Position numbers and translations under genes: made by a program. Below the pieces are notes generated by a model. The model was not told the origin of the DNA, did no database searches, and saw only the letters and a program-made list of their open reading frames with translations. A stretch of 64,000 bases of DNA from Candidatus Kerfeldbacteria bacterium (GTDB taxonomy: Bacteria; Patescibacteriota; Patescibacteriia; UBA9570; XYC2-FULL-38-9): positions 10,920 to 74,919 of the forward strand of contig JACPGJ010000003.1 of assembly GCA_016182555.1 (NCBI GenBank). The letters run 5' to 3'. Positions within the stretch are counted from its first letter, which is position 1. Every line of letters begins with the position of its first letter. Shown here piece by piece: positions 15,273 through 37,768 of the stretch.

Positions 15273-15292
15273 TTAATAATACCAGAGCCATC

Positions 15293-16724: not shown

Positions 16725-16727
16725 TCT

Positions 16728-18927: not shown

Positions 18928-18930
18928 CCT

Positions 18931-20250: not shown

Positions 20251-21887
20251 ATTTTCGTAAGCGATTACAACAACAATCTGTTTATTGGTATGGAGCGATG
20301 GCAGTGATGGTGCTATTTGCCGTTTTTCAATTGGCCACTATCAATCAGTACGGAGTGAGTTGGGACGAAAAAGATGAGCATCTGCTCGCAAACGCGTTGA
20401 TGCAATATATAGAAACGGGGAATGTGAGTGAAATTACGTTAACCGGATATCCTGATTTACGACATTATGGTTCCTCAACGCCATTTTTGATGATGTTGTG
20501 TTCTGTGGTTTCGCGTCAATTTCTCGGGTTGAATGTGGCGAGTGCGAATCATCTGTATATTGTGTTGTTGGGTGTCGTGACTCTCGTGGCAACATATTTG
20601 TGGAGCCGGCGTGTATTTGGAAAAAGAGTCGCATTATGGAGTATTCTTTTTTTGGCGTTATTTCCGCAATTTATTGCTCATGCTCAGTATAACCCTAAAG
20701 ATATTCCCCAAACAGCATATATTGCACTGACGTATTATTTTTTCTATCGGTGCTACCATGATCGAAAATTCATTTTTGCACTACTGGCTGGCGTGGTTTA
20801 TGGTATTGCCTTGTCTACCGTGGTTTCAGTCTTGATTGCGCTACCTATATTTTTTGGCAGCTACGTGCTTTTTATTCTTTTTCAAGACCCCGTTTATCGT
20901 CGTGCTGATTGGAAGCAGTACCTTGGAAAAGACGCCGTATTATTTTTGGTATTTGCTGCCACTGCAGCGCTTACGATGTATGCCACCTGGCCACTCATGT
21001 GGACAGAACCGACTATTTTTATGGACGCCGTGCGCCTGTTTCAACACCATGATTGGAATGGCACGGTGTTGTACTTAGGGACTGTCTCTTATGCCGCTGA
21101 GTTGCCCTGGCATTATGCGCCGTTGTATCTCTTTATTGTTACGCCGCTGTCTACAATCATTTTTTTTGTGTTTGGGCTAGTGTATGCCGGCAAGCAGGTC
21201 TTCAAGCGGGTGCATCTTTCTGCAGCTCACCAAGAAATGACGGGCACAGTGACTGTTCATTTAACCGCGGTATTTCGCTATGGGTCTTTACTATTGTGGG
21301 CGTTGATACCATTGGCGGTGTTTATGTTACCTGGTGCAGTGAATTATGATGGCATTCGACATTTTTTTATGGCTATTCCACCACTCATGATTCTTGCTGG
21401 TATTGGATTACATGCGGTTATTGAGCGTCTCGCCAGTTTGTCTGTGCCGTACAAACGCGTGCTACCTATTGCCATTATTTGCGTGTTTTTATTTTCAATT
21501 GGTGCACAAATTGTACAAATTCATCCGTATGAAGGATCGTATATGAATGAAATTGTTCGTACCGTGATCCCTAAGCACGTTGAAGATTTTTTTGAAGTAG
21601 AGTATTGGGGACCATCCTACCGCGAAGGAGTTAAGTGGCTGAATGCCAATGCTTCACAGAAATCTCGTGTTTGCATCCCGTTTGCGCCACATCTTATTGA
21701 TGCCTACCATACACGCAAAGATCTGTCTTTTGGTTGTGACCAGCCATATAGTTATGTGATGTATTTTACGCGTGGAGGAAAGCGTAATACGCCACAGGAA
21801 TTAACAGATCATGTTGATCAAGCACGACTCGTGTATACCATTTCACGCCAAGGTGCAGATTATTTATATATTTATGAAACGAAGTAA
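20247..21887 (+). CDS. GT-C-fold membrane glycosyltransferase (ArnT/PMT-like), paralog 1
   Basis: 546 aa, polytopic. First periplasmic loop carries the Asp-Glu motif (VSWDEKDE). About half the residues are identical to the downstream gene over FPQFIAHAQYNPKDIPQ...NGTVLYLG. Confidence 0.65.
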   Translation: MNFRKRLQQQSVYWYGAMAVMVLFAVFQLATINQYGVSWDEKDEHLLANALMQYIETGNVSEITLTGYPDLRHYGSSTPFLMMLCSVVSRQFLGLNVASANHLYIVLLGVVTLVATYLWSRRVFGKRVALWSILFLALFPQFIAHAQYNPKDIPQTAYIALTYYFFYRCYHDRKFIFALLAGVVYGIALSTVVSVLIALPIFFGSYVLFILFQDPVYRRADWKQYLGKDAVLFLVFAATAALTMYATWPLMWTEPTIFMDAVRLFQHHDWNGTVLYLGTVSYAAELPWHYAPLYLFIVTPLSTIIFFVFGLVYAGKQVFKRVHLSAAHQEMTGTVTVHLTAVFRYGSLLLWALIPLAVFMLPGAVNYDGIRHFFMAIPPLMILAGIGLHAVIERLASLSVPYKRVLPIAIICVFLFSIGAQIVQIHPYEGSYMNEIVRTVIPKHVEDFFEVEYWGPSYREGVKWLNANASQKSRVCIPFAPHLIDAYHTRKDLSFGCDQPYSYVMYFTRGGKRNTPQELTDHVDQARLVYTISRQGADYLYIYETK

Positions 21888-23457
21888 GTTGTTGAATTTT
21901 TCCACAGCTGCTTATTTGCTGATTGTACTTTTTTTTATCGTGAATGTGGTGACGTTGAAGCAGTATGGCATGACATACGATGAACGGAATTATGCCATGA
22001 TCGGCCAGATGAATGTGGAATATTTTCATACGCTGGATCGTTCACAAATTCACCCGTTAGATGATCTGATGATTTATTATGGACCAGCGTATCACATTGT
22101 TCAACAAGTGTTTGGTTTATTTGCGCAGGCGGTGTTTCATTTAGGGTATATTGATGCCACACATCTTTTTTTGGTATGTACTTCTACCGCCATGTTATTG
22201 GTGGTTTTTTTCTTTGCTCGGTCATTATTCCGCCCATCGGTTGGTTTGTGTACGGTTGTCTTGCTCATGCTGTTTCCACACTTTATTGCCCACGCCCATT
22301 ATAACCCGAAAGATTTACCCGAAGCCGAGATGGTGACCATTAGTTTGTATCTTTTTTATCGGCTCTATAGCACAAAGCGATATGTGTACGCTATTTTAGC
22401 CGGTGCGGTTTACGGTTTTGGTTTAGCCACAGTCGTGAGCATTCTTTTAGCCGTGCCAATATTTGTTGCGAGTTATCTATCTTTTTTGGTTTTTCAAGAA
22501 CGAATATATCAACGCAAAGATTGGAGGGTATATTTATTAAAAGATGTATTATTATTTTTTGTATTTGCTATCGTGCTCATGTTCACAATGGTTTTGAGTT
22601 GGCCACTGTTATGGAGCGATCCACACATATTTGTAGAATCTATTCGCTTGTTTCGTCACCATAGTTGGAATGGGCAGGTTTTATATTTTGGCCAAACCTA
22701 TCTTGGTTCTGAAATTCCGTGGCATTATGTGCTGCTATCTCTATTTATGGCTACTCCACTGTTACCATTTTGCTTTTTTATTGTTGGTCTGGTTCGGTCT
22801 GGAAAACAGATACTCCATCGGAAGGAAATGTTTCCATATGCGTTCATACTGTGTTGGGCCGCTCTGCCATTGATCATATTTATGTTGCCTGGTGCTGTGA
22901 ATTATGATGGAATACGACATTTTTTTATGGCTATTCCACCATTGATGATTCTCGCTGGTGTGGGGATGGATGCGGTGATACGCGGGTTAAAAAATATATT
23001 ACACACTCGACCCGTGCTTCTTCCAACTATTTTTTGTATAATCGTCGTCGGTTGGTTGGTTAATGAATCACGCCAAGTACACCCGTATGAAGGTGCCTAT
23101 TTTAATGAATTGGTGCGTCTCATCATTCCTGCACATATCGAAACTGTGTTTGAAGTGGAATATTGGGGCGCATCTTACCGAGAAGGTGTTGACTGGTTGA
23201 ATACACATGCCGCACCAAATGCGGTGGTCTGTGTGCCTGATGGTATGCATATGGTTGAAATGTATCCACGCCGTCTAGATATTCTCTTGCATTGTGGTGA
23301 TGACTCTACGTATGTCATGTATTATACGCGTGGTGGTCCAAGAAAAATTCCTGCGCCTATGTTATTGAACCAACAATCAACGCAGCGTGTCTACACTATC
23401 AGCCGGCAACATTCGGATTATCTGTATATTGTTTCTATTTCATCAGTATCGCAGTAA
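21874..23457 (+). CDS. GT-C-fold membrane glycosyltransferase (ArnT/PMT-like), tandem paralog 2
   Basis: The start MKRSKLLNF at 21874 overlaps the upstream stop by 14 nt; the ORF-track 5' extension from 21811 is rejected. FPHFIAHAHYNPKDLPE...NGQVLYFG is collinear with paralog 1. The loop has a DE motif (MTYDERN). Confidence 0.65.
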   Translation: MKRSKLLNFSTAAYLLIVLFFIVNVVTLKQYGMTYDERNYAMIGQMNVEYFHTLDRSQIHPLDDLMIYYGPAYHIVQQVFGLFAQAVFHLGYIDATHLFLVCTSTAMLLVVFFFARSLFRPSVGLCTVVLLMLFPHFIAHAHYNPKDLPEAEMVTISLYLFYRLYSTKRYVYAILAGAVYGFGLATVVSILLAVPIFVASYLSFLVFQERIYQRKDWRVYLLKDVLLFFVFAIVLMFTMVLSWPLLWSDPHIFVESIRLFRHHSWNGQVLYFGQTYLGSEIPWHYVLLSLFMATPLLPFCFFIVGLVRSGKQILHRKEMFPYAFILCWAALPLIIFMLPGAVNYDGIRHFFMAIPPLMILAGVGMDAVIRGLKNILHTRPVLLPTIFCIIVVGWLVNESRQVHPYEGAYFNELVRLIIPAHIETVFEVEYWGASYREGVDWLNTHAAPNAVVCVPDGMHMVEMYPRRLDILLHCGDDSTYVMYYTRGGPRKIPAPMLLNQQSTQRVYTISRQHSDYLYIVSISSVSQ

Positions 23458-23458
23458 C

Positions 23459-25402
23459 ATGTTTCAACGTATCTATCATTGGTTCAAGATATATTGGAAG
23501 GATATTGTCGTTATATGCATTATCTATAGCCTGATATTATTTCTTTCCTCGTTTGCACCGATCAGATTTGCGGATGCGTATAACGCCGTCACTGCAGAAA
23601 ATGTGGCCCATTCAGGAAAATATATATCACCATTAGGTGATGAATTCGATGTGTTTCTTTCTACTGGGCCTGCCGTTATTCTTCCGATTGCTTTTTCATT
23701 TGTATTGTTTGGTTCATCCGTGCTGGCAATTCGAGCAGTGATGGTTGCCTACACCGTTGCGTTTTTTGTTCTGTGGTTTTTGTTGATGGGTCAGTGGTTT
23801 CCCGCATGGGGAAAAATAAAAAAATACCTTGTGTTGATTTTTTCCGGATTCCTTCTTTTGAAAGTGAATATTCTTGGAGGAGATATTTTTTATAATGTTC
23901 TTGGTCAAATGCCTGGATTTTTTTATCTTTTTTTAGCGTTCTATCTTCTCACAAAATACCAACGCCGCCCATCATTGCTTTTAGTGATCTTTGCCGCTAT
24001 TTCAATTGGGTTGGCTATACAATCAAAATTATTTTTTGTGTTGGCGGTTCCCTCACTGTTCTATTTATTATTTGTTCGTGCGAATGGAAAGTGGCAATCG
24101 TGGAAGAAATGGATAGGGCACAGTAGTATAGCCATTATTTTTGCATTATTACCAACAATTCTTTTTCTTGTATGGCAGTGGTGTGCGCTGGGAACAGATC
24201 AATTTTTACGCACACAGTATGCGCTATATAAAACCATGAAATATGTGCCAGATTCTTTAATTCAAATTTCTGCGGTGAACCTTATGAAACAACATGTACA
24301 TACACTGGAGCAGATGTTACATGTTGATTGGTATATTTTTATTATTTTTCTTTTATCGGTTTTTGTTGGCGTGTATTATGCGTGGAGAAAAAATGTATAT
24401 ACCATTGTTGCATTGTCAATATTTTTATTTCTCTATAGTGGTTGGTGGTTTTTTCGTGATACCGGAAATCGAGACCGGCATACACTCTATTTGCTTTTGC
24501 CATTTGTTGTATTATGCGTCTGGCAATGGTGTTCAAGAGGTATGTGGCGAGTTGGTCGTACCCTTGCTTTGCTATCTATTACTATTATCCTTATTCGCGG
24601 TGTGCATCTTCATTCCGTGTTGGTGGAAGAACCAATAGCGACTCTTTATGCACAACAACAGCTTGTTGATTATTGGAATAACACGATGTCGCAACAGAAT
24701 ATTTCCGTGGTGTATGCGGGATTAGATGTCCCCGCAGATATTGCTTTTTTAGTGCATCGTCCGACATGGAATAGTGTACGTGATATGGACATGGTTGAGC
24801 GTGAATCTGGCAATATCCATTATCATATGTTAACACCGATTGGTCATGATTATGATCCGTTTGTTTATCATTATACACTAGATAATCACTGTATTCAGCC
24901 ATTGCTGTATAACGCTGGCAACTATAGTATTTGTACAGCATATAATAATTCGTATTCAGAAGAAGAATATCAGTATATGCTCCAAAGAAAAGAGACGATT
25001 TGTGAGGAATTGAAACAAGGATATCTTGGATCGTGTGCAAAACAAATCGGCGATGGGTTTATTATTACACTTTCTGATTTTCTCACTTTAGGAAAAGATT
25101 TTGCAGCATGGATAAAAATGAAACCAGGTGCTCATACACTCATTCTTGATGGTAAGATGCTGCATGGTATTCCCCATCAGAATATGCATATATTTATTAA
25201 TGATCAACTCGTATCGGAATATGCTGGAGACGAAGAGGAGTATTTTCGTATATCGATTGATCTAGATACCTATCAGCAAGGCGAATTAATTAAAGTGCGT
25301 ATAGTGAATGATGAAGTATTTTCTCCAATTTATTCATGGCAATTTTTTAATGTGCATTATGATCAACGAAGCATAGAACTATATAATATTGTTCAAGAAT
25401 AG
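23459..25402 (+). CDS. Large polytopic membrane protein, probable third GT-C-like transferase with a C-terminal soluble domain
   Basis: The start MFQRIYHWF at 23459 is directly after the upstream stop. About 12 predicted TM helices, then a C-terminal domain of about 230 aa. Early loop with GDEFDV. Confidence 0.5.
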   Translation: MFQRIYHWFKIYWKDIVVICIIYSLILFLSSFAPIRFADAYNAVTAENVAHSGKYISPLGDEFDVFLSTGPAVILPIAFSFVLFGSSVLAIRAVMVAYTVAFFVLWFLLMGQWFPAWGKIKKYLVLIFSGFLLLKVNILGGDIFYNVLGQMPGFFYLFLAFYLLTKYQRRPSLLLVIFAAISIGLAIQSKLFFVLAVPSLFYLLFVRANGKWQSWKKWIGHSSIAIIFALLPTILFLVWQWCALGTDQFLRTQYALYKTMKYVPDSLIQISAVNLMKQHVHTLEQMLHVDWYIFIIFLLSVFVGVYYAWRKNVYTIVALSIFLFLYSGWWFFRDTGNRDRHTLYLLLPFVVLCVWQWCSRGMWRVGRTLALLSITIILIRGVHLHSVLVEEPIATLYAQQQLVDYWNNTMSQQNISVVYAGLDVPADIAFLVHRPTWNSVRDMDMVERESGNIHYHMLTPIGHDYDPFVYHYTLDNHCIQPLLYNAGNYSICTAYNNSYSEEEYQYMLQRKETICEELKQGYLGSCAKQIGDGFIITLSDFLTLGKDFAAWIKMKPGAHTLILDGKMLHGIPHQNMHIFINDQLVSEYAGDEEEYFRISIDLDTYQQGELIKVRIVNDEVFSPIYSWQFFNVHYDQRSIELYNIVQE

Positions 25403-26497: not shown

Positions 26498-27916
26498 TTA
26501 TTTCAGAGGCACAAGTTTGCCATTGGGTTGTAATTGAAAAATGTAATGGAGGCTATTTTTTTCAATTGTCGATACATGTGCTATGTCAATTGGAATTGCC
26601 TTAACAGTTGGGTTGTTATAGGCAATTCGTAATATTGATCCACCATTAAATATAAATAGTTCTGTAGGAAAATCTGCTGGGAACACAAAATAGAATGTTG
26701 TATTGTCACTTATATGAGGAACAAACGCTTGTACTTGTTGAGTCACCCGATCTAAACGTTCTGTAAAGTTACCATGATTTTTTGCTACCACAGTGAATTG
26801 ATTATATGTGGTATAAGCAAAAAAAAGTAACCAGAAACTGAGAAGAGTATATGGAATATATATTCTCTTTTTACATAAGGAAGTTAGATAATCAATACAG
26901 ACTGCAAATACAATATACAGCCCGATAATAGGCAACATGAGGTAATAACTATAGATATGGAATGGGAGAATAAGGACTGGTAAAAGTGTGCCACCTGCCC
27001 AACCAGCTCCAAACAGCATTACTTTTCTTCTATCAGCATTTGCAAAAAATGCTACTATTATTGGAATGAATAAGCTAACGGCTACAATAAAAAGATTTGA
27101 TTTAACCAACAATATTCCATCTATTGCCCATGCTATATATGTACGAATATGTTCGCTCAGAAAAGAACCAAATTCAAGAGAATATGCACCTTCATTTGGA
27201 TAGATCAAAAATTGTGATCTGAGAAGAAAAAATAGGATTGTCACAATAACAAATGGACCAAATTTGCGCAGTATTTCTTTTATAGAGTGATGACGTTCTA
27301 CAGTTAAATGCAGAAGGAGTAAAACTCCAGGTAAGGTGATAGCCATCTCTTTTGACAGTAGAGCCAAGATAAAAGAGAATATTGATAAAAAATACTTCGT
27401 GGAAAGAGTTCTATACCCAGAATACATATAGAATAAGAGAGAAGATAAAAAGAATAGTATACTCAATAACTCTTGACATACAGATATCCAGCGTTGAGAA
27501 TCAAAGCTAATTGGATTCATAATATACAACAATGCAGCAGCGGCGCTAATATATTTTTTTAATCCAAATTTTGCTAAAATGAGATATAGCAGCACACCAT
27601 TGATTGCTAAAAGAATAGTATTGGAGATGTGAAAATAAATAGGATGCGGCCCAAACATCAGCTGGAGAGTACCGAAATACACATTTGTTGATATTGGTCT
27701 ATAAAATATCGTATTTTGACTGGTGGAAAATAGATTCAGCAAATCAGCAAATGATCCTATAGTAGATCGTTCCACGAAAATATAATCATCCAGAAAAAAG
27801 GATTGATCAAAGGTATGGTGATAAAAGAGTAGAGTAACAATAAGGAATATAGGAATAATACATATCAGCCATCGTATATTTGCTGTATATCGCTTCAACA
27901 GAGTAGAAACTGTCAT
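26498..27916 (-). CDS. Polytopic membrane protein, GT-C-like; last gene of the UbiA/HAD/SDR operon
   Basis: 472 aa, more than 10 TM helices. Acidic first loop (FFLDDYIFVERST). Lies directly downstream of the SDR gene on the minus strand. Confidence 0.5.
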   Translation of the reverse strand: MTVSTLLKRYTANIRWLICIIPIFLIVTLLFYHHTFDQSFFLDDYIFVERSTIGSFADLLNLFSTSQNTIFYRPISTNVYFGTLQLMFGPHPIYFHISNTILLAINGVLLYLILAKFGLKKYISAAAALLYIMNPISFDSQRWISVCQELLSILFFLSSLLFYMYSGYRTLSTKYFLSIFSFILALLSKEMAITLPGVLLLLHLTVERHHSIKEILRKFGPFVIVTILFFLLRSQFLIYPNEGAYSLEFGSFLSEHIRTYIAWAIDGILLVKSNLFIVAVSLFIPIIVAFFANADRRKVMLFGAGWAGGTLLPVLILPFHIYSYYLMLPIIGLYIVFAVCIDYLTSLCKKRIYIPYTLLSFWLLFFAYTTYNQFTVVAKNHGNFTERLDRVTQQVQAFVPHISDNTTFYFVFPADFPTELFIFNGGSILRIAYNNPTVKAIPIDIAHVSTIEKNSLHYIFQLQPNGKLVPLK

Positions 27917-27953
27917 ATTATAGAACTTCCGTATTTAGCTAAATGATCACAAA

Positions 27954-28997
27954 TTAGAAGAATTTTTTGGCTAGGCCAAGAATACCTTGTTTCCATGGCA
28001 CACGGTGGGAAACGCCAGATTTTCCTTCAAATTCTTTTTGATGGTCAATGTACCATTGCAAATTTCGAAGGAGCGCATCTTTGTTTGAATATTTTGGTAC
28101 GTACCCCAGAATGCGTTCTGCTTTTTCAATAGAAACAAACGAATCTTCACAAGCAGTTTCATACACCCATTTATATAATGGAGAGAGGTGAAAAAATTCC
28201 AGTACTCGTAAAGCCCAAATCATGGGTGCCGCAGGAAAGCCAATAATTTTTTTTCCAAACCCAGCTTTGTCTAACACGACTTGATAATCTTCTTTCATGG
28301 TAGTGAATTCCTTTGCACCAATATTGAATGTATCGTTCACTATGCTGGTTTCTTTTGTCGCACATAAGTAAATCGCATCACATAAATCTTCCACCGCAAG
28401 TAATTGATAGCGATTATGACCACTCCCGATCATGGGAAAATTTCGGCCATCCAACGCCCAATCATACAACAACGCAAAGACGCCTAAACGCTCCGGCCCA
28501 ATAAAAGATTTTGGACGAATAATGGGTACAACCATGCCATCTTTACGTGCCTGAACACAAGCTTCTTCAGCAAGAATTTTTGCTTCTCCATACGGGCCAA
28601 CGCCAACAAGCTTATCGGTTTCAAATAACGGATGATGATCTGGGATACCGTACACTGCCGTAGATGAAATATGCACGACCCGTTTTACACCGTGTTTTTT
28701 TGCCGATTCCAAAATAATGCGTGTACCCTCTACGTCAGTAGAATAAATTTCTTCTTTGGAATACAATGGGAGTGCAGCGGCGCAATGAACAACAATATCC
28801 ACTCCTTCCATTATTTTGTCTACCGTGTCTTTATGGCGAATATCACCAATGACCGACTGGATACGATCTTTTTCCGGATAATCAAATTCGAGCAAATCAA
28901 GAGAGCGAACGGTGTGCCCGTTTTCCAAAAGAAAGCGAATCAGATTAATCCCTAGAAATCCTGATCCGCCGGTAATGAGGTAGGTCTGTGATGCCAT
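27954..28997 (-). CDS. NAD-dependent epimerase/dehydratase (extended SDR, 3-beta-HSD-like)
   Basis: YLITGGSGFLGINLIRFLLENGHTV (Rossmann). Catalytic YGEAKILAE (YxxxK). 347 aa. Confidence 0.7.
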   Translation of the reverse strand: MASQTYLITGGSGFLGINLIRFLLENGHTVRSLDLLEFDYPEKDRIQSVIGDIRHKDTVDKIMEGVDIVVHCAAALPLYSKEEIYSTDVEGTRIILESAKKHGVKRVVHISSTAVYGIPDHHPLFETDKLVGVGPYGEAKILAEEACVQARKDGMVVPIIRPKSFIGPERLGVFALLYDWALDGRNFPMIGSGHNRYQLLAVEDLCDAIYLCATKETSIVNDTFNIGAKEFTTMKEDYQVVLDKAGFGKKIIGFPAAPMIWALRVLEFFHLSPLYKWVYETACEDSFVSIEKAERILGYVPKYSNKDALLRNLQWYIDHQKEFEGKSGVSHRVPWKQGILGLAKKFF

Positions 28998-29005
28998 AGA
29001 AAAAA

Positions 29006-29362
29006 TTATGATTTAGGTAATGAAATAAGAATAATGCCCGATAATAATAGCAATATTCCGCTGAGCTGTACACCGCTCAGTGTCTCTTTGAGATAGAATG
29101 TGGAAAAGAGAGTAATAATCAAAAAACCCCCACCGACCATCAGCGGATATGCGAGGGAGAGTGGTAATTTGGAGAGCGCTACGGAATAAAAAATCACATT
29201 CAGGGCGAAGAGTATCAGCCCAAGGATAAGTACGTAATTTTTCATCACGGCTTCGATCATTCCGACTTCTTTAAAATAATGCAAATTTTTAGAACCAACC
29301 TTGAGTGAAATGTTTGCGACGGCGTTGAGCGTGAGTGCAGTCACAAGATAAGCATATCCCAT
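29006..29362 (-). CDS. Small 4-TM DMT/SMR-family protein, ArnE/ArnF-like putative lipid-linked-sugar flippase subunit
   Basis: 118 aa with four hydrophobic helices. The size and topology match ArnE/ArnF/EamA-like small transporters. Located between the HAD and SDR genes. Confidence 0.5.
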   Translation of the reverse strand: MGYAYLVTALTLNAVANISLKVGSKNLHYFKEVGMIEAVMKNYVLILGLILFALNVIFYSVALSKLPLSLAYPLMVGGGFLIITLFSTFYLKETLSGVQLSGILLLLSGIILISLPKS

Positions 29363-29367
29363 AATAT

Positions 29368-29844
29368 TTATAGATAATGATTGAATAGTCTGAACATAAC
29401 ATCATCAACCGCATTGATTATTTTAATAATCGGGCGATCTTTTCCATGCTTCCTTTTCACTCGAATAAATTGGGCGCCTATACGCTTTGCAAATAGGGCA
29501 TCGGTCAAAAATTTATCGCCAATAACGGTGACCGGCTGTTGCGAAAACTCGGTGGGAAGGCATTGCAGCACACGACGACTGGGTTTTTTACAATCTGGGT
29601 TGATGATTGATGTTTTTGTAATCCGTTCTATTTCTTTGCAGCGAGGTCGATTCCGTGAATTTGTACATAAATAGACAGTATTATGTTCTTTCAGTTCTTC
29701 CAATTTTTTTAATGCGGGCAGTGTGACCAATACCGCATTGTCTGGAACCAATGTTCCGTCAATATCCAACAAAATAACTGAATCACGCAATGACTGCACA
29801 TTCAGCTCTTCAAAATAGTATTCAGCCATAGAGGTAAAATACAC
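29368..29844 (-). CDS. HAD-IIIA-type phosphatase (YqeG-like)
   Basis: Motif I ILLDIDGTLVPD (DxDGT), motif II VYLCTNS, motif IV VIGDKFLTDALFAKRIG (GDxxxTD). 158 aa. Overlaps the UbiA gene by 23 nt. Confidence 0.6.
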   Translation of the reverse strand: MYFTSMAEYYFEELNVQSLRDSVILLDIDGTLVPDNAVLVTLPALKKLEELKEHNTVYLCTNSRNRPRCKEIERITKTSIINPDCKKPSRRVLQCLPTEFSQQPVTVIGDKFLTDALFAKRIGAQFIRVKRKHGKDRPIIKIINAVDDVMFRLFNHYL

Positions 29845-30724
29845 CAGTCATCCACACCATCCAGGTGAGCACCGTACAGAGCAACCACCGATCATGAAAT
29901 AACATTTTTTCTGGTGCTTCCCCCTGTTCAAACTGATGAATAATATACAAATATCGAAACATGCCAAAAAAGACAAAAAATGAGGAGTAGATCATATACG
30001 GTTTATCTACCTCTACTGTGTATAAACTGTAACTGAGAATAACGCCGGTAATAACGACCGTGAGAATATGATCCAAGAATGAATCAGTATATTTGTTGAG
30101 AACAACGCGTGTCTGGTGTTCACTGCCAGCAACTGCTTTAAATTCAGCGCGTCGTTTCCCAATAATGAGAAATAATGCCAGAAAAAAAGTGACCAAAATG
30201 AGCCACGGAGAGATATAAATATTTAGCAGTTCTCCACCGGCTTTGACACGCAGTAAATACATAAATGCGACAAAGAAAATTTCAATGACTGGAATGTGTT
30301 TTAGAAAGAAGGAATAACTGATATTCATGCAGAAATACAGAAAGAGAATAATATCCACTCGTGCATTTAATTGGGTAGCGAGTGCAATAACAATGAGTAA
30401 CAACAAGAACGCAATCCACTGACCTTGGCGAATACTTATTTGCCCGGCAGCAATGGGACGAAACTTTTTTTTCGGATGATGTCGGTCTTTTTCATAATCC
30501 GCAATATCGTTAATGATATAAATACTGCTGGCCAAAAATGAAAATGCAAAAAATAATAGTGCCGTGTGATAGACATTCTGCACACTAAAAAATTCAACGG
30601 CAAAAAATAATGGTGCAAAGATTAACAGATTTTTAATCCAATGATTGGCACGCATTTCTTTTACGATAGCGTGCGTGGTTGATTGACGTGGTTGCATAGG
30701 TGATAAATGTCTCGAAGGTATCAT
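29822..30724 (-). CDS. UbiA-family prenyl-phosphate transferase with the decaprenyl-phosphate 5-phosphoribosyltransferase (DPPR synthase, Rv3806c-type) signature
   Basis: WIKNLLIFAPLFFA ... YIINDIADYEKDRHHPKKKFRPIAAGQIS. This is the NDxxDxxxD motif plus the K(K/R)FRPIA(A/S)G block characteristic of DPPR synthases. 8–9 TM helices. Confidence 0.65.
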   Translation of the reverse strand: MIPSRHLSPMQPRQSTTHAIVKEMRANHWIKNLLIFAPLFFAVEFFSVQNVYHTALLFFAFSFLASSIYIINDIADYEKDRHHPKKKFRPIAAGQISIRQGQWIAFLLLLIVIALATQLNARVDIILFLYFCMNISYSFFLKHIPVIEIFFVAFMYLLRVKAGGELLNIYISPWLILVTFFLALFLIIGKRRAEFKAVAGSEHQTRVVLNKYTDSFLDHILTVVITGVILSYSLYTVEVDKPYMIYSSFFVFFGMFRYLYIIHQFEQGEAPEKMLFHDRWLLCTVLTWMVWMTGVFYLYG

Positions 30725-30741
30725 AACTGTGTGTCCGGGTA

Positions 30742-31887
30742 TTAGTCAAGCATACGTTGGTACATTTTTTTATATTCGTCAGCTGCTTGTTGCCAAGAAT
30801 ACAAAAGGCTTTTTATACGGCTTGCGCTCGCGTATGTTTGCCGTAGTTTTGCGTCACGTAATAATTGGGTGAGTGCAGCGGTGAGTTGCGTTTGATTATT
30901 TTTTTCAATAATGATGCCGTTTCCGCTGGCGAGTGCTTCCGCGTCGCCAGTATTCGTGATAATCAATGGCAATCCAGATGCCATCGCTTCCAATACCGTG
31001 TTCGACATACCTTCATTATGAGACGGTAGAACAAAAATATCCGCCTGGCGATAGATTTCTGGTAATTCGCTGCGTTCCATATTGCCGTGAAAGTGTACAC
31101 GTTTGCTCAACTGTAACGCTTGTGTCAGTGCCTCAAGTTCCACTCTAATATTTCCATCACCAACTATTTCTAATTCCGTTTGTGGAAATGAAGATTGTAT
31201 TTCAGCGAATGATTTTATCAGTATATCAATTCCCTTTCTTTCTATTAGACGTGAAACACACAGAATGCGTACTTTTTTTTTATTTTCTTCGGCCGTAGAG
31301 GCCGAAAATGGATAGAATATTTCCGTGTCTACACCATTGGGAATAACGGGTATTTCTAATGATGCCATCGACTTATGCGCTAAATCAGCTAAACTTTGGC
31401 TATTGGCCACAACATCTGTTGCCTTTTTCCAAATATCGACAAACAATGGCTTCGCAATAGTATAAATAAATTGAAACCGTTTATTATATCCGGGCACATC
31501 GGAGCCGCGTAGAGAGATAATATATGGTAACTGACGGCGGAAACTATACGCAATAATTCCTGCTGGTACGGTAAAAAAGGCATGAACGAAATCGTATGTA
31601 TTTTTTCGCACCAGGCTGCGTGCCATTAAATACCCCTGCAACAGATAACGGAATAAGTTTAATTGTGACTGATAATGCAACGAATCACGTTTATCTCCAA
31701 TCGGTACACGGTACAGGGTCACATTCGGAAATGGTTGCTCTGTTGAATATCGATTGTCGATTGCTGCGGTGATGCAATCAATTGTTATGCGTTCTTCATT
31801 GCGGAATTGGCGGAATAATTCTTGTGTTGCGTATCCAGCGCCACCACCCAACGGTGGGTATTCTGAATTGAGAAAGAGAACACGCAT
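30742..31887 (-). CDS. Glycosyltransferase family 4
   Basis: MRVLFLNSEYPPLGGGAGYA at the N-terminus. EX7E region SHNEGMSNTVLEAMASGLPLIITNTGD. Confidence 0.75.
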   Translation of the reverse strand: MRVLFLNSEYPPLGGGAGYATQELFRQFRNEERITIDCITAAIDNRYSTEQPFPNVTLYRVPIGDKRDSLHYQSQLNLFRYLLQGYLMARSLVRKNTYDFVHAFFTVPAGIIAYSFRRQLPYIISLRGSDVPGYNKRFQFIYTIAKPLFVDIWKKATDVVANSQSLADLAHKSMASLEIPVIPNGVDTEIFYPFSASTAEENKKKVRILCVSRLIERKGIDILIKSFAEIQSSFPQTELEIVGDGNIRVELEALTQALQLSKRVHFHGNMERSELPEIYRQADIFVLPSHNEGMSNTVLEAMASGLPLIITNTGDAEALASGNGIIIEKNNQTQLTAALTQLLRDAKLRQTYASASRIKSLLYSWQQAADEYKKMYQRMLD

Positions 31888-31888
31888 G

Positions 31889-32821
31889 TTATTTTTTTAT
31901 GGTGAGAATTTCTTTGATCGCGTAGGGTTTGCGTGGGCCGTCATAGTAAATACGAATCAGAATATCGGCCAACAATCCAAAGATAAAAAATTGAACACCG
32001 AGTATGGTGAGTAATACGGCCAAGAGGGGGATATTTGAATCTGCTAAGCCGTGATGAAAAATAAATTTTTTGATAAACAAAGCAATAAAAAGAAGAATAG
32101 CTCCAACAATCAACCCCAACCCAAGCCCTCCAAACAAGTGCAGCGGTCGGCGGGCATATTTTCGCCAAAACCAAATCGCCAGCATATCGATAAATCCTTT
32201 GTACACGCGCTTCCAGTTATATTTTGTCTTTCCGTGCAAGCGTGGACGGTGCGCAATCGGTGCCTCTGCAATGCTGAATCCGCTCCAGGCCAGTACGGCC
32301 GGGATAAAACGGTGCATCTCACCAAATAAATCCACTTCGTTAAAACATTCTTTTTTGTAGACTTTGAGTGAACATCCTGAATCATGGATATGATCTTTCA
32401 CAAAAATACTCCGCAGGCCATAGGCACCCCGCGATACAAACCGTTTCATGAATGGGTCATGCCGTTCTTGCCGCCAACCGGAGACCACATCTACGCGCTT
32501 CTCTTCCATGACGGTGAGCAATTTTGGAATTTCACTGGGTGGATTTTGCCCGTCACCATCGAGTGTAATAATTATTTCACCGCTCGCATGTTTAATTCCA
32601 GCATCCAGTGCGGCGGTTTGTCCAAAGTTTTTTCGTAAACGAATAACGGTCAGCGGGGATAAGGTATTCAACACGCCTGCTGTTCCGTCAACGCTACCGT
32701 CATCCACGACAATCACTTCATAGGGTTGACCAAGATTGTTCATGACGGTGATCACTTCTGCATGCAGCGCAGGAATATTTTTTTCTTCATTAAATACCGG
32801 AATAATAACGGAGTATTTCAT
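31889..32821 (-). CDS. GT2 polyprenyl-phosphate glycosyltransferase (ArnC/GtrB/DPM1-like) with a C-terminal TM anchor
   Basis: YSVIIPVFNEEKNIPALHAEV...VVDDGSVDGT...IITLDGDGQNPPSEIP. C-terminal TM helices (LFGGLGLGLIVGAILLFIALFI..., LLAVLLTILGVQFFIFGLLADI). Confidence 0.8.
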   Translation of the reverse strand: MKYSVIIPVFNEEKNIPALHAEVITVMNNLGQPYEVIVVDDGSVDGTAGVLNTLSPLTVIRLRKNFGQTAALDAGIKHASGEIIITLDGDGQNPPSEIPKLLTVMEEKRVDVVSGWRQERHDPFMKRFVSRGAYGLRSIFVKDHIHDSGCSLKVYKKECFNEVDLFGEMHRFIPAVLAWSGFSIAEAPIAHRPRLHGKTKYNWKRVYKGFIDMLAIWFWRKYARRPLHLFGGLGLGLIVGAILLFIALFIKKFIFHHGLADSNIPLLAVLLTILGVQFFIFGLLADILIRIYYDGPRKPYAIKEILTIKK

Positions 32822-32826
32822 ATTGT

Positions 32827-33798
32827 TTACTTACCATGAAATCGCTCTTCTGTAAACCAGTGCACAAATTTTTTCAAACCCGTTTCAATATCGGTTTTCG
32901 GCCTCCAATTGAGCAAGCGGCTAGCTTTTGAAATATCTGCGTATGTTTTATTCATGTCGCCAGCCGCCGCAGGTAAGTACTCAATTTTGGCTTCTTTGCC
33001 AGTGACACGTTCCAACACCGCAATATATTCTCGCATCGTTAAAGGGTGGGAATTTCCTAGGTTAATAATTTCATATTCTAATTTTTTTCCCACACACGCC
33101 ATCACGCCATCGACAATGTCATCTATATACGTGAAGTCGCGCTCTGCAGAACCATCGCCATACAGTTGAATGGGCTTTCCATAAAGCAAGCTTTCCGTAA
33201 ATTTATACGGAGACATATCTGGTCGGCCACGTTCACCATAGACCGTAAAAAACCGTAATCCAATACAATTCATTTGGTAGAGGTGATGATAGGTGTACGC
33301 AATCAATTCACAGGCACGTTTACTCGCGGCATACGGAGAGATAGGATGATCGACATTCGCTTCTTCTGAAAACGGTGTTTTGTTTTGGTTGCCGTACACG
33401 GAAGAAGACGAAGCAAAAATAATATCGTGTACGCCGAATTCGCGGGCGAGTTCAAATAACAAGTATGTGCCTTCCACATTCACACGTTGTGTCAGAAGCG
33501 GCTGTTCAATGGAAATACGCACACCGGCTTGCGCTGCGAGGTGAATAATTAGGTCAATCGAGTGTTGCTCAAACACCGCACGCATCGCTGCGGCATCTGT
33601 AATATCAGCGCGTACTAACTGATAGACTGCTGTTTCCGCATGTGCCTCAATGTTCGATTCTTTATATTGTGGATTATAATACGCCGAAAAATTGTCTACC
33701 GCAATCACCGTGTGTCCTTCGGCAATTAAGCGATCGGCAACGTGTGAACCAATGAACCCTGCGGCTCCAGTTAAAAGGATATTCATGACCCTCACCAT
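32827..33798 (-). CDS. NAD-dependent nucleotide-sugar epimerase (UDP-glucuronate 4-epimerase-like)
   Basis: ILLTGAAGFIGSHVADRLIAEGHTVIAVDNFSAYYNPQYKESNI is the Cap1J/LpsL-type N-terminus. YxxxK present (YAASKRACE). The ORF-track 5' extension to 33939 is rejected; the start is likely MVRV/MNIL near 33786–33798. Confidence 0.7.
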   Translation of the reverse strand: MVRVMNILLTGAAGFIGSHVADRLIAEGHTVIAVDNFSAYYNPQYKESNIEAHAETAVYQLVRADITDAAAMRAVFEQHSIDLIIHLAAQAGVRISIEQPLLTQRVNVEGTYLLFELAREFGVHDIIFASSSSVYGNQNKTPFSEEANVDHPISPYAASKRACELIAYTYHHLYQMNCIGLRFFTVYGERGRPDMSPYKFTESLLYGKPIQLYGDGSAERDFTYIDDIVDGVMACVGKKLEYEIINLGNSHPLTMREYIAVLERVTGKEAKIEYLPAAAGDMNKTYADISKASRLLNWRPKTDIETGLKKFVHWFTEERFHGK

Positions 33799-33852
33799 AC
33801 AATTTTTTGGCCTACTGGTCAACGAGAGAGTTTTTTCGTATACTGCTTGGGT

Positions 33853-35349
33853 ATGAAGATACGTGTCAACACTATAAAACTCGCCAAAGGAATTATTTTT
33901 TTCATTCCCATCGTGATCAGTGTCTGGATGGCAGTTCAATATTTTGCTGTTTCCGGCAATTTATCTATTGGTACCAATTTTTCCAGTGCATCTCCATTTA
34001 TTTCGGAGTGGTACCCACAAAACCGCGCTGGCGACCGCGAACAAAATTTACGAACAGGCGATACATATCAGCAACTTGTTGGTGAGCCAGATTATATTGA
34101 TGTTGCCGTTCCGCGTTCATACGATAGTGTGGACGTGACAGTTGACTACAACAACGACGAACAACCGTTGATTGAATTTGGTCTCATTACGAACCCCGAA
34201 CCATGGAGTGTGAATTTGCAAGCATTTGAAAGTACCGTCATTGATGAAGCATTGAAAACGTGGGATCGTATCGACACCGACGGCGTGACGCTTTTACAAC
34301 GCACAAAACAATTCAATTCACTAGACGAATTTCGAAATGCCATGCCGTCCGACAAAGGTGTTGGCACCTATCGTTATCAATTGTATCCAACATTTATTGA
34401 TCCGACGTATACACCGAGTGATGCGAGTCTCGATATTGACCGGTACTTTCGTGGTGCTCACGAATTTGTGGCGTATGTCAAAAATGAAACACTTCACATC
34501 ACCTTTGACTTCGCCGATATGAACCGTGAATTTAATGCCGATCCTGTTAAAATAGAAGTGTACGATAAGGGGCAGCTGATTGATGAAAAATTATTATCAG
34601 ATGATGGTGATGTAACGGCGTCAGGCGTGAACACGGCTGTGCGTTCACTCACTGTTGATATTCCAAATCTTGCTGAAGGTGCTTATACGTTGAAAGTGGT
34701 GGTGGATAACGATATGGTCACCACCCATATTCACAGTGATCAAGAAAAATTTGTTGCGCACAATCAGGTCTACATTATCAATAATGAAGAATATCGCATT
34801 CCATTTCCAGAAATGAACCTGGACGGCACGACAGTTGCGACCAATGCAACAGAATTTATTGCGAAAACCGATCATAATACGGGCGTGCAAACGATGACGA
34901 TTGATGATGAGCCGCTCGATATCAATACCGTGCATGAATTTGCTTCTTGGCAAGCAGAAAACGCAACAGCGAATACCAATACTGTTCGTACGGTGGTGAT
35001 GCCGAAAAATGACCTCCTCTTTATTACCCACGGCTACATGGCGTTCACTCAGGATAGTTTTTTTGACCCAGATTATTTGATTCAATCGGTTGATGAAATG
35101 AGCACACTAGACCAGCTCGATCATATTGTTTTTCAAGATTACCATTCGCCAGAAGTGCTTCGCAGAGACAAAACACAAACCGTGCATTTGGATTTAGCAG
35201 GTGTGGCGGGTGACAGAAAAAAACTCACGTTTATTTTATCCGCACCTGGCTTGGATCGAGAACGATATATGATACAAATTAATCATATCCAATTCGATTT
35301 TCAACGCGAGCCGTTATGGCAACGACTCCGCCAACGTTTCCACTTATGA
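33853..35349 (+). CDS. Hypothetical exported/anchored protein
   Basis: The N-terminus is hydrophobic (KGIIFFIPIVISVWMAVQYFAV), followed by a large soluble domain. 499 aa. Divergent from the glycosylation operon. ATG at 33853; the track start 33847 is a TTG. Confidence 0.5.
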   Translation: MKIRVNTIKLAKGIIFFIPIVISVWMAVQYFAVSGNLSIGTNFSSASPFISEWYPQNRAGDREQNLRTGDTYQQLVGEPDYIDVAVPRSYDSVDVTVDYNNDEQPLIEFGLITNPEPWSVNLQAFESTVIDEALKTWDRIDTDGVTLLQRTKQFNSLDEFRNAMPSDKGVGTYRYQLYPTFIDPTYTPSDASLDIDRYFRGAHEFVAYVKNETLHITFDFADMNREFNADPVKIEVYDKGQLIDEKLLSDDGDVTASGVNTAVRSLTVDIPNLAEGAYTLKVVVDNDMVTTHIHSDQEKFVAHNQVYIINNEEYRIPFPEMNLDGTTVATNATEFIAKTDHNTGVQTMTIDDEPLDINTVHEFASWQAENATANTNTVRTVVMPKNDLLFITHGYMAFTQDSFFDPDYLIQSVDEMSTLDQLDHIVFQDYHSPEVLRRDKTQTVHLDLAGVAGDRKKLTFILSAPGLDRERYMIQINHIQFDFQREPLWQRLRQRFHL

Positions 35350-35548: not shown

Positions 35549-36502
35549 ATGCGCATCATTGTATACGGCTCGATCGCGTTTGATCGAGTGATGATATTTC
35601 CTGGAACATTTCAAGAACATATTTTACCGAACCAGATTCACAATTTGAATGTATCCTTTTTTATCGAACGTTTAGAGCAGCGGCGTGGTGGCTGCGCCGG
35701 CAATATTGCCTATAGCTTACATTTGTTGGGTGAACAACCACAACTGGTTGGCAGTATTGGTGGTGATGCCGATTCGTATATGCAATATTGGCAGCAGATG
35801 GGTTTGTCTACAGATCATGTTGCGGTATACTCAAGTGAAACAACAGGCGGCGCGTACATGATGACCGATTTGAAAAATAATCAAATTTCTGGTTTTCACC
35901 CTGGCGCAGATAGCTGCGATACTGTACTCCAACTTGAAGATTACGACCCGAAGGAGACGCTGATGATTTTTTCTCCGCGTAATAACCACGACGAAATTCT
36001 CCGTTATGTGCAGCAATGTCAGCAGTTAGGTATTCGTTATATTTTTGACCTTGGTCAAACGATTCCAACATTTTCTGGCGAAGAGTTACGCATGATGATG
36101 AATGGTGCCTATATTATTATTGTGAATGATTATGAATTCAATCTCATTCTGCACCGTGCACAGGTAACGAAAGAAGAGGTGCTCGGTTTCACAGAACAGT
36201 TGATTACGACGTTGGGTGACCACGGTTCAGTGATTGAATCGGCAACAGACCGTATAGAAATTCCCATTTGTCGTGTAGAAGAAGTGAAGGACCCCACTGG
36301 AGCAGGGGATGCGTATCGAGCTGGTTTATTGAAAGGTTTGAGCGCTGGTTGTTCATGGGAACAAGCCGGAAAATTAGGCGCTGTTGCCGCGGCGTATGCC
36401 ATTGAACATTACGGCACTCAAGAACACCGCTATACATTTGCTGAATTTGCTCAACGGTATCAAGAAAATTTTAATAAACCATTTCCATTAACCGTTAATT
36501 AA
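35549..36502 (+). CDS. PfkB-family carbohydrate/nucleoside kinase (adenosine-kinase/ribokinase-like)
   Basis: PfkB signature 2 DPTGAGDAYRAGLL. The GG motif (GGCAGN) is near the N-terminus. 317 aa. Confidence 0.75.
   Translation: MRIIVYGSIAFDRVMIFPGTFQEHILPNQIHNLNVSFFIERLEQRRGGCAGNIAYSLHLLGEQPQLVGSIGGDADSYMQYWQQMGLSTDHVAVYSSETTGGAYMMTDLKNNQISGFHPGADSCDTVLQLEDYDPKETLMIFSPRNNHDEILRYVQQCQQLGIRYIFDLGQTIPTFSGEELRMMMNGAYIIIVNDYEFNLILHRAQVTKEEVLGFTEQLITTLGDHGSVIESATDRIEIPICRVEEVKDPTGAGDAYRAGLLKGLSAGCSWEQAGKLGAVAAAYAIEHYGTQEHRYTFAEFAQRYQENFNKPFPLTVN

Positions 36503-37768
<1,266 letters not shown>

Follow-up and report, generated by a model that had tools for sequence, protein, structure and literature searches.

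The closest described system is that of Citrobacter youngae O1/O2, in which Kelly et al. (PNAS 2024, PMC11127046) demonstrated a fused HAD(PRP)-UbiA synthase (ORF15, PRP-PPPRS), an EmrE/ArnE-like flippase (ORF14), a single SDR epimerase (ORF13) and a GT-C glycosyltransferase (ORF12, GT136). Among SDRs of this type, ORF13 alone has been characterised, and its C3 epimerisation yields xylofuranose (PMC11127046). DprE1/E2 homologs were present in all arabinofuranose systems found by these authors, and the supplementary information describes a phage with a split PRP, examples from Gram-positives and loci in which several epimerases or GT-Cs occur together (PMC11127046). As summarised in the same paper, pilin D-arabinofuranosylation in Pseudomonas aeruginosa of the PA7 type involves TfpW together with a DPPR-synthase and DprE1/E2 homologs.

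We analysed a 64,000-nucleotide stretch of DNA (the window) from an uncultivated Candidatus Kerfeldbacteria bacterium (Patescibacteria/CPR), identical to a MAG deposited in GenBank. It contains an eight-gene minus-strand operon with intergenic gaps of 5, 1, 17, -23, 5, 8 and 37 nt between successive genes, located within a ~23-kb island of similar polyprenyl-phosphate-sugar/GT-C units. Further GT-C and GtrA genes are visible in the adjacent island. We consider it likely that the core of the operon (26498–30724) is a three-component extracytoplasmic pentofuranosylation system of the Citrobacter youngae kind, equipped with an auxiliary epimerase; experimental precedent exists for each of the steps proposed below (PMC11127046). 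All eight open reading frames listed in a first-pass annotation were present where it had placed them, and their family assignments hold, that of the GT-C protein by its fold. The upstream limit that it gave, 33939, belongs instead to a longer TTG-started reading frame, as the SDR domain of the first gene starts directly after the ATG at 33798.

The UbiA-family protein (29822–30724, minus strand) was assigned as a polyprenyl-phosphate 5-phosphoribosyltransferase (PPPRS/DPPR-synthase type). Its score against the NCBI DPPR-synthase model NF008978 was 224.2 bits (cutoff 207), compared with at most 40 bits for other UbiA-family models, and the two features singled out in the first-pass annotation, the N72-D73-x-x-D76-x-x-x-D80 motif and the HPKKKFRPIAAG block, were both confirmed. 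The protein matches the Rv3806c structure 8j8j at 4e-44. Ten of the 12 residues that bind PRPP in Rv3806c are identical here (R22, K28, Y70, N73, D77, K87, R90, Y138, K143 and Y157), the changes being Q135 to N and K208 to V, the latter beside an invariant R206. Among the kept residues are the 5'-phosphate binders K28, Y70 and Y157, which according to the Rv3806c structure paper are not found in prenyl-transferring UbiA enzymes. These scores and phosphoribose-specific residues, together with a dedicated HAD family repeatedly fused to this type of UbiA, make it highly improbable that the protein is an ordinary prenyltransferase (for quinones, ether lipids or similar) within a hexose-type GT2/flippase/GT-C cluster, even though an ArnC-like GT2, the SMR-like flippase and the GT-C together make up a full hexose-type set in the operon and some relatives of this UbiA adjoin mevalonate-pathway-like kinases. 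The GenBank record already names the gene decaprenyl-phosphate phosphoribosyltransferase. A DPPR-synthase homolog outside Actinobacteria had been regarded as noteworthy but is commonplace: a genome scan confirmed at least 595 stretches with such homologs across most phyla. Those of Anaerolineae and Clostridia occur in unrelated gene contexts, so the DPPR-synthase-like family may be functionally non-uniform.

Next in the operon is a putative phosphatase of the HAD-IIIA class (YqeG/PGP-phosphatase-like; 29368–29829, minus strand) with intact catalytic motifs, DIDGT (27) and GDKFLTD (109). Judging from its homologs, which align from query residue 6 onward, translation more likely starts at ATG 29829 than at GTG 29844, where the longest reading frame begins. 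The 23-nt overlap with UbiA claimed previously thus holds for the longest reading frame, whereas the likelier start gives an overlap of 8 nt. The HAD family is small, with 349 representatives at E ≤ 0.001 among 1.84 billion. In 19 of the top 150 representatives the HAD is fused N-terminally to a DPPR-synthase-type UbiA, while in another 11 of these 150 the fusion partner is different, and in seven of those cases it is a membrane domain. It is also fused to or adjoins UbiA in six related loci (L003, L008, L009, L011, L022 and L049), and in L001 it is fused to a GtrA-family domain nearby. These gene fusions suggest that the HAD removes the ribose 5-phosphate. The enzyme nevertheless falls outside the published PRP subfamily, because it is of type IIIA, whereas the proteobacterial fusion carries PF12710 and the HAD-IB type is found in the genes of the phage and of Lactococcus.

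The following gene (29006–29362, minus strand) encodes a 118-aa four-helix protein of the SMR family (EmrE/ArnE/ArnF-like), which scores 34.7 bits against PF00893 (cutoff 23.7) and weakly matches ArnF, ArnE and MdtJ. Orthologs with 41–58% identity lie directly after UbiA or HAD in L001, L003, L008, L011, L012 and L090, consistent with a role as flippase for the lipid-linked pentose, probably as a homodimer. For the 472-aa membrane protein at the end of the operon (26498–27916, minus strand), the family search gave no match, but the predicted structure is confidently of the GT-C fold, with a membrane domain of about 11–12 helices, in which TM1 is followed by a DD motif, and a small alpha/beta domain at the C-terminus. 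BLAST detected no sequence orthologs in related loci, where the large membrane partners are unrelated; adjacency alone therefore assigns this putative glycosyltransferase to the pentose donor rather than to the GT2 donor. It may transfer the pentose to an extracytoplasmic acceptor.

Relatives share only the unit UbiA-HAD-SMR-SDR, accompanied by a large membrane protein that varies, so that the conserved core comprises five genes. The exact order is found in a Peregrinibacteria locus (L008), and with variations in other SDR-positive CPR loci. A phage-labelled contig also shows the order of the window, with a 565-aa membrane protein after the SDR, while two CPR loci (L003 and L011) carry a minimal cassette without the SDR. 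The proposal that all eight genes form one pathway consequently stands for the recurring core, but not for the first three genes, which are not conserved with it. Of these three, the extended SDR of gene 1 (32827–33798, minus strand) is UDP-hexuronate/hexose 4-epimerase-like, matching Pfam Epimerase (2e-62), GalE TIGR01179 (200 bits, under cutoff) and the Bacillus cereus UDP-GlcA 4-epimerase 6zl6 (7e-55); we placed it in an accessory nucleotide-sugar branch, and it is not conserved beside UbiA in relatives. The second encodes a GT2 polyprenyl-phosphate glycosyltransferase of the ArnC/GtrB/DPMS type (31889–32821, minus strand), with two C-terminal hydrophobic segments and matches to PF00535 (1e-32), NF007986 ArnC (2e-47) and PgfS (4e-41), the last two under cutoff, and to the structures of ArnC (9hwj, 3e-44), GtrB (5ekp) and DPMS (5mlz); its product would be a further lipid-linked donor carrying a hexose or uronate. 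The third, a cytoplasmic GT4 Leloir glycosyltransferase (30742–31887, minus strand; PF00534 at 2e-39, and PF13439), may build an acceptor glycan or glycolipid and lies near UbiA in three of 87 loci, with weak identity. The trio thus looks like a separate polyprenyl-phosphate-hexose/uronate plus Leloir branch.

The extended SDR of the core (27954–28997, minus strand) has intact epimerase motifs (TGGSGFLG and YGEAK) and belongs to a UbiA-linked family that is highly conserved and uncharacterised, with more than 120 clusters at 72–79% identity, Roseiflexus included. Orthologs with 62–78% identity adjoin UbiA in nine of 80 genome loci as well as in L001 and L002, from CPR lineages, a Spirochaete and an unclassified bacterium, and orthologs with 42–52% identity do so in haloarchaea, Streptomyces and Nonomuraea. 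The UbiA-linked SDRs of the phage contig, NGR234, a haloarchaeon and Streptomyces all score best against the core SDR rather than against the other two SDRs of the window, as does the Roseiflexus ortholog. The fold is of the GalE type (TM about 0.74). A plain polyprenyl-phosphate-ribofuranose donor, with the SDR serving a nucleotide-sugar step of the GT2/GT4 branch or modifying the acceptor, would fit the fold neighbours, which are all nucleotide-sugar enzymes, the SDR-less CPR cassettes, which imply that a ribose donor is functional by itself, and Roseiflexus, where no UbiA lies within 8 kb of the conserved SDR and LCP and MurJ genes adjoin it instead. We regard this as quite unlikely, given that the SDR tracks UbiA, not GT2/GT4, in CPR, the Spirochaete, haloarchaea and actinomycetes, that it scores only 65 bits against the GalE model versus 170–200 bits for the other two SDRs, and that its best family matches are the lipid-substrate SDRs HpnA, OleD and 3-beta-HSD. 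These observations favour a cytoplasmic epimerase (or oxidoreductase) acting on polyprenyl-phosphate-ribofuranose.

The first-pass annotation had proposed 2'-epimerisation to arabinofuranose. In such a mycobacterial-style DPA pathway, one SDR would generate polyprenyl-phosphate-D-arabinofuranose and the GT-C would be an arabinofuranosyltransferase. This is unlikely and is not indicated by the published precedents: ORF13 makes xylofuranose, and every arabinofuranose system found in that study carries DprE1/E2 homologs (PMC11127046), whereas profile matches revealed neither a DprE1-type (vanillyl-alcohol-oxidase family) gene nor a DprE2-type classical SDR in the operon. The GT-C is also structurally nearer to Pmt and ALG12 than to Aft and Emb.

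In the pathway that we favour, with an epimerase auxiliary to the pentofuranosylation system, UbiA would move 5-phosphoribose from PRPP onto polyprenyl phosphate, a first committed step with strong sequence support that gives polyprenyl-phosphate-ribofuranose-5-phosphate. The HAD would then take off the 5-phosphate, as its gene fusions suggest, and the core SDR with bound NAD could turn the lipid-linked ribose into another pentofuranose, most likely the C3 epimer xylofuranose by published precedent, with the C2 epimer arabinofuranose possible. After flipping by an SMR-like dimer, the candidate GT-C would place the sugar on a surface glycan, glycolipid or protein. The co-transcribed but evolutionarily separable upstream trio would provide both a second polyprenyl-phosphate-linked sugar and glycosylation in the cytoplasm, with the same surface polymer as the probable target. 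The overall logic of synthesis from PRPP and polyprenyl phosphate, dephosphorylation, possible modification by the SDR, flipping and GT-C transfer, already put forward in the first-pass annotation, is backed by residues, fusions, gene order and predicted fold.

Genes 1 and 2, the small flippase and the GT-C follow the same scheme as ArnC/ArnE-F/ArnT, GtrB/GtrA/GtrC and S. mutans Pgf (PgfS/PgfE/PgfM), but reach no equivalog cutoff, and the operon's only flippase and only GT-C would have two potential donors to serve. With the mycobacterial DPA pathway it shares the first enzyme, by curated-model membership and conserved PRPP site, and the route of a cytoplasmic lipid-linked pentofuranose used by a GT-C outside the membrane. 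It differs in having a HAD in place of the PAP2 phosphatase Rv3807c, a single extended SDR in place of the DprE1/DprE2 pair, an SMR-type rather than GtrA-type (Rv3789) flippase candidate, and a GT-C outside the Emb and Aft families; the HAD, SDR and small-flippase substitutions, once presented as new, are already in PMC11127046. The PA7-type P. aeruginosa system likewise combines a non-actinobacterial DPPR-synthase homolog with a GT-C, but it uses DprE1/E2 homologs and is encoded in linkage with the pilin gene. The window does contain a type IV pilus cluster, which had prompted the suggestion of pilin as acceptor; it lies ~21 kb from the operon, and its presence is the sole support for that link, no pilus linkage being seen in related loci.

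With C. youngae, the operon shares both parts list and logic: a UbiA PRPP:polyprenyl-phosphate phosphoribosyltransferase, a HAD, a four-helix EmrE/ArnE-like transporter, a GT-C and one cytoplasmic SDR that bears TGxxGxxG and YxxxK. The split between O2 and O1, with and without the SDR, is also seen among the operon's relatives. Here, however, the HAD is a separate IIIA gene rather than a fused PF12710/IB-like domain, and the GT-C is shorter, has no Ig-like CBM and most closely resembles PMT-type enzymes. Unlike Citrobacter, the CPR host is presumably a single-membrane cell devoid of LPS, which excludes O antigen as the acceptor. As such a system was experimentally shown in Citrobacter in 2024, the Kerfeldbacteria operon adds an example but no new mechanism; the only fresh lead comes from the core SDR family, at 72–79% identity between CPR lineages and Roseiflexus and at 42–52% beside UbiA in haloarchaea and actinomycetes.

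All eight minus-strand open reading frames (ORFs) proposed by the first-pass annotation were recovered at the positions given there: a UDP-GlcA 4-epimerase-like SDR (32827-33798), a GT2 (31889-32821), a GT4 (30742-31887), a UbiA-family transferase (29822-30724), a HAD phosphatase (29368-29844), an SMR transporter (29006-29362), a second SDR (27954-28997) and a 472-aa GT-C-like membrane protein (26498-27916). The region had been drawn to 33939, which belongs to a longer TTG ORF; the first SDR itself starts at 33798, as annotated. Intergenic spacing along the operon is 5, 1, 17, -23, 5, 8 and 37 nt, and such spacing is compatible with a single transcription unit. Scans of the operon with consensus promoters and terminators yielded nothing usefully above shuffled expectation. 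The overlap involves the HAD and UbiA genes; since HAD homologs align only from residue 6 onwards, the HAD start is probably the ATG at 29829, which would shorten the overlap to 8 nt. The window UbiA is 100% identical to a GenBank protein named decaprenyl-phosphate phosphoribosyltransferase in a MAG of Candidatus Kerfeldbacteria, a lineage placed in the Parcubacteria group of Patescibacteria.

Using the NCBIfam equivalog model for DPPR synthase (NF008978), we found that UbiA scored 224.2 bits against a cutoff of 207, with models of quinone, haem O, chlorophyll and archaeal-lipid prenyltransferases reaching 40 bits at most. It also matches the structure of the mycobacterial DPPR synthase Rv3806c (8j8j, E = 4e-44) and keeps the NDxxDxxxD loop (N72, D73, D76 and D80). 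In Rv3806c, twelve residues bind PRPP (R22, K28, Y70, N73, D77, K87, R90, Q135, Y138, K143, Y157 and K208), and UbiA enzymes that transfer prenyl groups do not share those contacting the phosphoribose (PMC10994848). The window UbiA has ten of these twelve unchanged, including the 5'-phosphate binders K28, Y70 and Y157; the two changes are Q135 to N134 and K208 to V207, the latter adjoining the family-invariant R206. Had the protein grouped with quinone or lipid prenyltransferases and lacked the PRPP residues, the first-pass interpretation would have been refuted; the model scores and residue conservation instead led us to reject a quinone or ether-lipid prenyltransferase, and UbiA is predicted to be an Rv3806c-type DPPR synthase. 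A neighbour-joining tree groups the CPR UbiA proteins, the window copy among them, in a single clade. Separately, at two Anaerolineaceae loci (L004 and L005, from the set L001-L095 carrying a DPPR-synthase-like UbiA or a related SDR), the genes after UbiA are not glycosylation genes; they encode a GHMP kinase and a member of the amino-acid-kinase family, which recall kinases of the mevalonate pathway. In Chloroflexota, the name 'decaprenyl-phosphate phosphoribosyltransferase' may be over-propagated.

The HAD protein is of subfamily IIIA, resembling YqeG and PGP phosphatases, with motif I (DIDGT at residue 27) and motif IV (GDKFLTD at 109) both intact. An exhaustive search of 1.84 billion representatives returned 349 relatives at E ≤ 0.001. 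Among the best 150 of these 349, 120 are standalone proteins of ~150 aa each, 19 have the HAD fused N-terminally to a DPPR-synthase-type UbiA and 11 are fused otherwise (membrane domains with 3-10 predicted TM segments in seven cases, unidentified regions in three and a GT2 in one). These fusions link the HAD to the UbiA step, and the protein is a predicted phosphoribose 5-phosphatase component of the type of system described by Kelly et al. in 2024. In the Peregrinibacteria locus L001, the HAD domain shares a gene with a GtrA-family domain. In four representatives (P0406, P0414, P0429 and P0459), this HAD type is joined to proteins of 565-676 aa that have 7-10 hydrophobic segments; these may be HAD-GT-C or HAD-transporter fusions.

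The SMR protein scores above the cutoff for PF00893 and matches ArnF and ArnE weakly. In six related loci, an ortholog comes directly after UbiA or HAD, making this small transporter encoded with the synthase a candidate flippase. The neighbouring SDR (27954-28997) has a GalE-type fold, with TGGSGFLG at residue 9 (TGxxGxxG) and YGEAK at 136 (YxxxK). It is probably not membrane-spanning, as it has no hydrophobic segment, and would thus be a cytoplasmic extended SDR beside the synthase, like the ORF13-type epimerase of Citrobacter youngae. Its best family matches are SDRs acting on lipid substrates (HpnA, OleD and 3-beta-HSD), and it scores 65 bits with the GalE model, compared with 170-200 bits for the two other SDRs in the window.

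The 472-aa protein matched no family in Pfam or NCBIfam. PMT_2 and TPR domains occur in its remote homologs, and its alignment-based AlphaFold model is confident (pLDDT 90.3, pTM 0.91); a GT-C-fold protein is encoded with the synthase. In related loci, the module is almost always adjoined by at least one protein of 450-590 aa that has 6-11 hydrophobic segments. BLAST of the 472-aa protein against the four other large membrane proteins of the window and the partners elsewhere gave nothing significant, the sole match among large membrane proteins being that of two PMT_2 paralogs to each other, and Pfam assigned no family to eight large membrane partners. This fits a view of the partners as acceptor-specific, fast-evolving GT-Cs. 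With no detectable similarity among them, it is by adjacency that the GT-C is paired with the pentose donor, and it may instead use the GT2-derived donor. On a phage-labelled contig from human faeces (MT837543.1, L092), the partner is a 565-aa membrane protein (3722-5419) that matches DUF6044 over its full length (E = 2e-103), a family to which the 472-aa GT-C does not belong. Its place at the end of a UbiA-HAD-SMR-SDR cassette suggests a role for DUF6044 as a family of GT-C-like pentofuranosyltransferases. At the B. multivorans locus L091, taken to represent a system listed by Kelly et al., the large neighbouring ORFs comprised a sigma-54 activator and wrong-frame artefacts, with no comparable GT-C.

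The three genes at the head of the operon point elsewhere. The first SDR matches UDP-GlcA 4-epimerase (6zl6, 7e-55). The GT2 at 31889-32821 matches PF00535 (1e-32) and structures of ArnC (3e-44), GtrB (2e-30) and DPMS (4e-22), and has two C-terminal hydrophobic segments at 226-276, the profile of an ArnC/GtrB-type polyprenyl-phosphate GT2. As it falls below the ArnC and PgfS equivalog cutoffs, no sugar is assigned to it. Homologs of the SDR, GT2 and GT4 near UbiA elsewhere are sporadic and of low identity. We read these genes as a separate branch, co-transcribed with the pentose module, that is predicted to make a polyprenyl-P-hexose or -uronate donor and to carry out cytoplasmic glycosyl transfer.

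The eight genes had been put forward as one pathway, yet they do not recur together as a block; what recurs across genomes is narrower, namely UbiA-(HAD)-(SMR)-SDR and a large membrane protein. Loci were scanned with a 7-sequence UbiA alignment, a 19-sequence alignment being too diverse. The exact order UbiA-HAD-SMR-SDR occurs in Peregrinibacteria (L008), and the cassette of the phage-labelled contig, ending in its DUF6044 protein, likewise follows the order of the window; blastn of this cassette against E. coli genomes gave no match. In L022 and L049, the SDR comes after a fused HAD-UbiA gene; two minimal cassettes (L003 and L011) lack the SDR and combine a membrane protein with a HAD-UbiA fusion and an SMR gene. 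The occupant of the phosphatase position also varies: a 479-aa HAD(PF12710)-UbiA fusion in B. multivorans, a HAD-IB gene in Lactococcus, a 199-aa HAD with an FDFDGT motif on the phage contig (without BLAST similarity to the window HAD), a PHP-domain protein in the haloarchaeon Halostagnicola larsenii and an EEP-family protein in Streptomyces. Several unrelated families thus fill the phosphatase step.

The last two cases are module logic built from other parts. On the H. larsenii plasmid (L093), UbiA, the PHP-domain phosphatase and an LPG-synthase-TM protein share a strand, opposite to that of the SDR and a 'DolP-mannose mannosyltransferase'; on a plasmid of Streptomyces sp. SAT1 (L094), the EEP-family protein is found with an LPG-synthase-domain protein. 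In Thermotalea (L006), too, UbiA is followed by LPG-synthase-TM proteins, and such proteins may be alternative flippases. An elaborate relative lies next to nodS on the symbiosis plasmid pNGR234a of Sinorhizobium fredii NGR234 (L095), comprising a UbiA-family protein of HAD-fusion length (489 aa), two SDRs, an SMR transporter, a GMC oxidoreductase and a 658-aa hypothetical protein.

The operon sits inside a ~23-kb glycosylation island (12393-35349) that additionally holds two GT2s, two GtrA proteins, two PMT_2 GT-Cs, two large membrane proteins without a family, more SDRs, a methyltransferase and an FAD oxidoreductase. One plus-strand cluster (17580-25402) resembles a second three-component system, with a GT2, a GtrA, the FAD oxidoreductase, the two PMT_2 GT-C paralogs (44% mutual identity) and a family-less 671-aa membrane protein of 10 hydrophobic segments. 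The oxidoreductase (18931-20250, plus strand; amine-oxidase/DAO family) is the only flavoenzyme nearby, belongs to the neighbouring operon and may oxidize a lipid-linked sugar; homologs 32% identical to it directly adjoin UbiA in Peregrinibacteria L001 and L002 and Gracilibacteria L009. A third unit (12393-17417) encodes a 712-aa family-less membrane protein, a GT2, an SDR, a GtrA and a class I methyltransferase. A 500-aa plus-strand ORF (33847-35349) lies 48 nt from the start of the operon and diverges from it; with a single N-terminal hydrophobic segment and no family match, it may encode a surface protein that is secreted or anchored. Methyl-cycle genes accompany the module, with a PfkB kinase and AdoHcy hydrolase flanking the window operon (35549-37768) and MetK and AdoHcy hydrolase between the SMR and SDR genes of L001 (9324-11842). 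The type IV pilus cluster that had suggested pilin as the acceptor is real (49120-57479). It lies ~21 kb away, and related loci have no pilus linkage; pilin glycosylation, left without any linkage, was rejected.

The UbiA-linked SDR is unusually conserved. It shares 72-79% identity with over 120 sequence clusters, whose sources are Peregrini-, Gracili-, Nomura- and Magasanikbacteria and Roseiflexus (74% between a CPR bacterium and Roseiflexus), and an alignment of 22 family members has ~150 invariant columns. Among the 80 surveyed species-representative loci with a DPPR-synthase-like gene, nine (seven CPR, one Spirochaete and one unclassified bacterium) have an ortholog beside UbiA (62-78% identical), as do, outside this survey count, the Peregrinibacteria contigs L001 and L002; in these loci, UbiA itself is just 34-57% identical. 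More distant orthologs lie beside UbiA on haloarchaeal megaplasmids (48-52%) and in Streptomyces and Nonomuraea (42-44%). The UbiA-linked SDRs of the phage contig, NGR234, the haloarchaeon and Streptomyces, and the Roseiflexus ortholog, all match this SDR far better than its GalE-like paralogs; for the phage contig and NGR234, identities of 27-34% point to a shared broad family only. Roseiflexus breaks this pattern: no UbiA was found there within 8 kb of the SDR, whose neighbours are LCP and MurJ genes. High conservation of the family was noted for the window copy and for loci L088, L089, L093 and L094.

One reading of this family, which we hold to be unlikely, is that it is a widespread single-enzyme polyprenyl-phospho-ribofuranose epimerase that dispenses with DprE1/DprE2 and could produce D-arabinofuranose or a different non-ribose pentofuranose. 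Furanose decoration of the arabinan or xylan type would then be common and ancient in the envelopes of single-membrane bacteria and archaea, and CPR surface proteins, possibly pili or S-layers, would be decorated through PMT-like GT-C enzymes. Our literature search found nothing on a conserved UbiA-linked SDR family, and no solved structure scored above 74 bits against the window SDR. Without a characterized or structurally solved close relative, and present in the cultivable Roseiflexus, Halostagnicola and Streptomyces, the family is a practical lead.

CPR epibionts depend on surface contact with their hosts, and to our knowledge almost nothing is known of CPR/Patescibacteria cell-surface glycobiology. 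The locus predicts a PRPP-derived pentofuranose on an extracytoplasmic target in this Kerfeldbacteria lineage and in many Peregrini-, Gracili-, Pacei- and Zambryskibacteria.

Compared with mycobacterial DPA synthesis, the window has the Rv3806c-type DPPR synthase, with a HAD-IIIA protein in the position of the PAP2 phosphatase Rv3807c; no PAP2 protein was found among the scanned operon and island proteins. The pair formed by DprE1 (FAD, vanillyl-alcohol-oxidase fold) and DprE2 (a classical SDR) is absent, the operon SDRs being all extended. The first-pass annotation took three non-orthologous enzyme replacements (the HAD phosphatase, the single SDR and the SMR-like flippase) to be new; all three are already described for C. 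youngae O1/O2 (PMC11127046). There, a HAD(PRP)-UbiA fusion makes polyprenyl-P-ribofuranose from PRPP in vitro, a four-helix EmrE/ArnE-like transporter is included, the GT-C (ORF12, MH325883.1) is the founder of CAZy GT136 and, in O2, xylofuranose is formed from the ribose donor by one cytoplasmic SDR (ORF13, MH325884.1) (PMC11127046). The study gives m/z values of 435 for farnesyl-P-ribose and 513 for its 5-phosphate form. According to its authors, arabinofuranose systems carry DprE1/E2 homologs and xylofuranose systems an SDR; their supplementary candidates include Gram-positive bacteria, a phage whose PRP is separate, and loci that have more than one epimerase and GT-C (PMC11127046). We found no literature beyond the 2024 papers on this system in Patescibacteria/CPR, nor any follow-up on GT136 or PPPRS. 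The first-pass interpretation is partly supported: its mechanism is right in outline, and its scope, sugar identity and novelty were overstated. The window differs from C. youngae in its HAD, which is of type IIIA (the PF12710/IB type occurs in B. multivorans, the phage contig and Lactococcus), in its PMT-like GT-C without a carbohydrate-binding module and in a host presumed to be single-membrane, so that the acceptor cannot be LPS. The mechanism is not new, and the value of the locus lies mainly in annotation and in the SDR-family lead; the window probably adds one more example, from a new lineage, of the system published in 2024, which is thereby extended to CPR and, on plasmid evidence, to haloarchaea.
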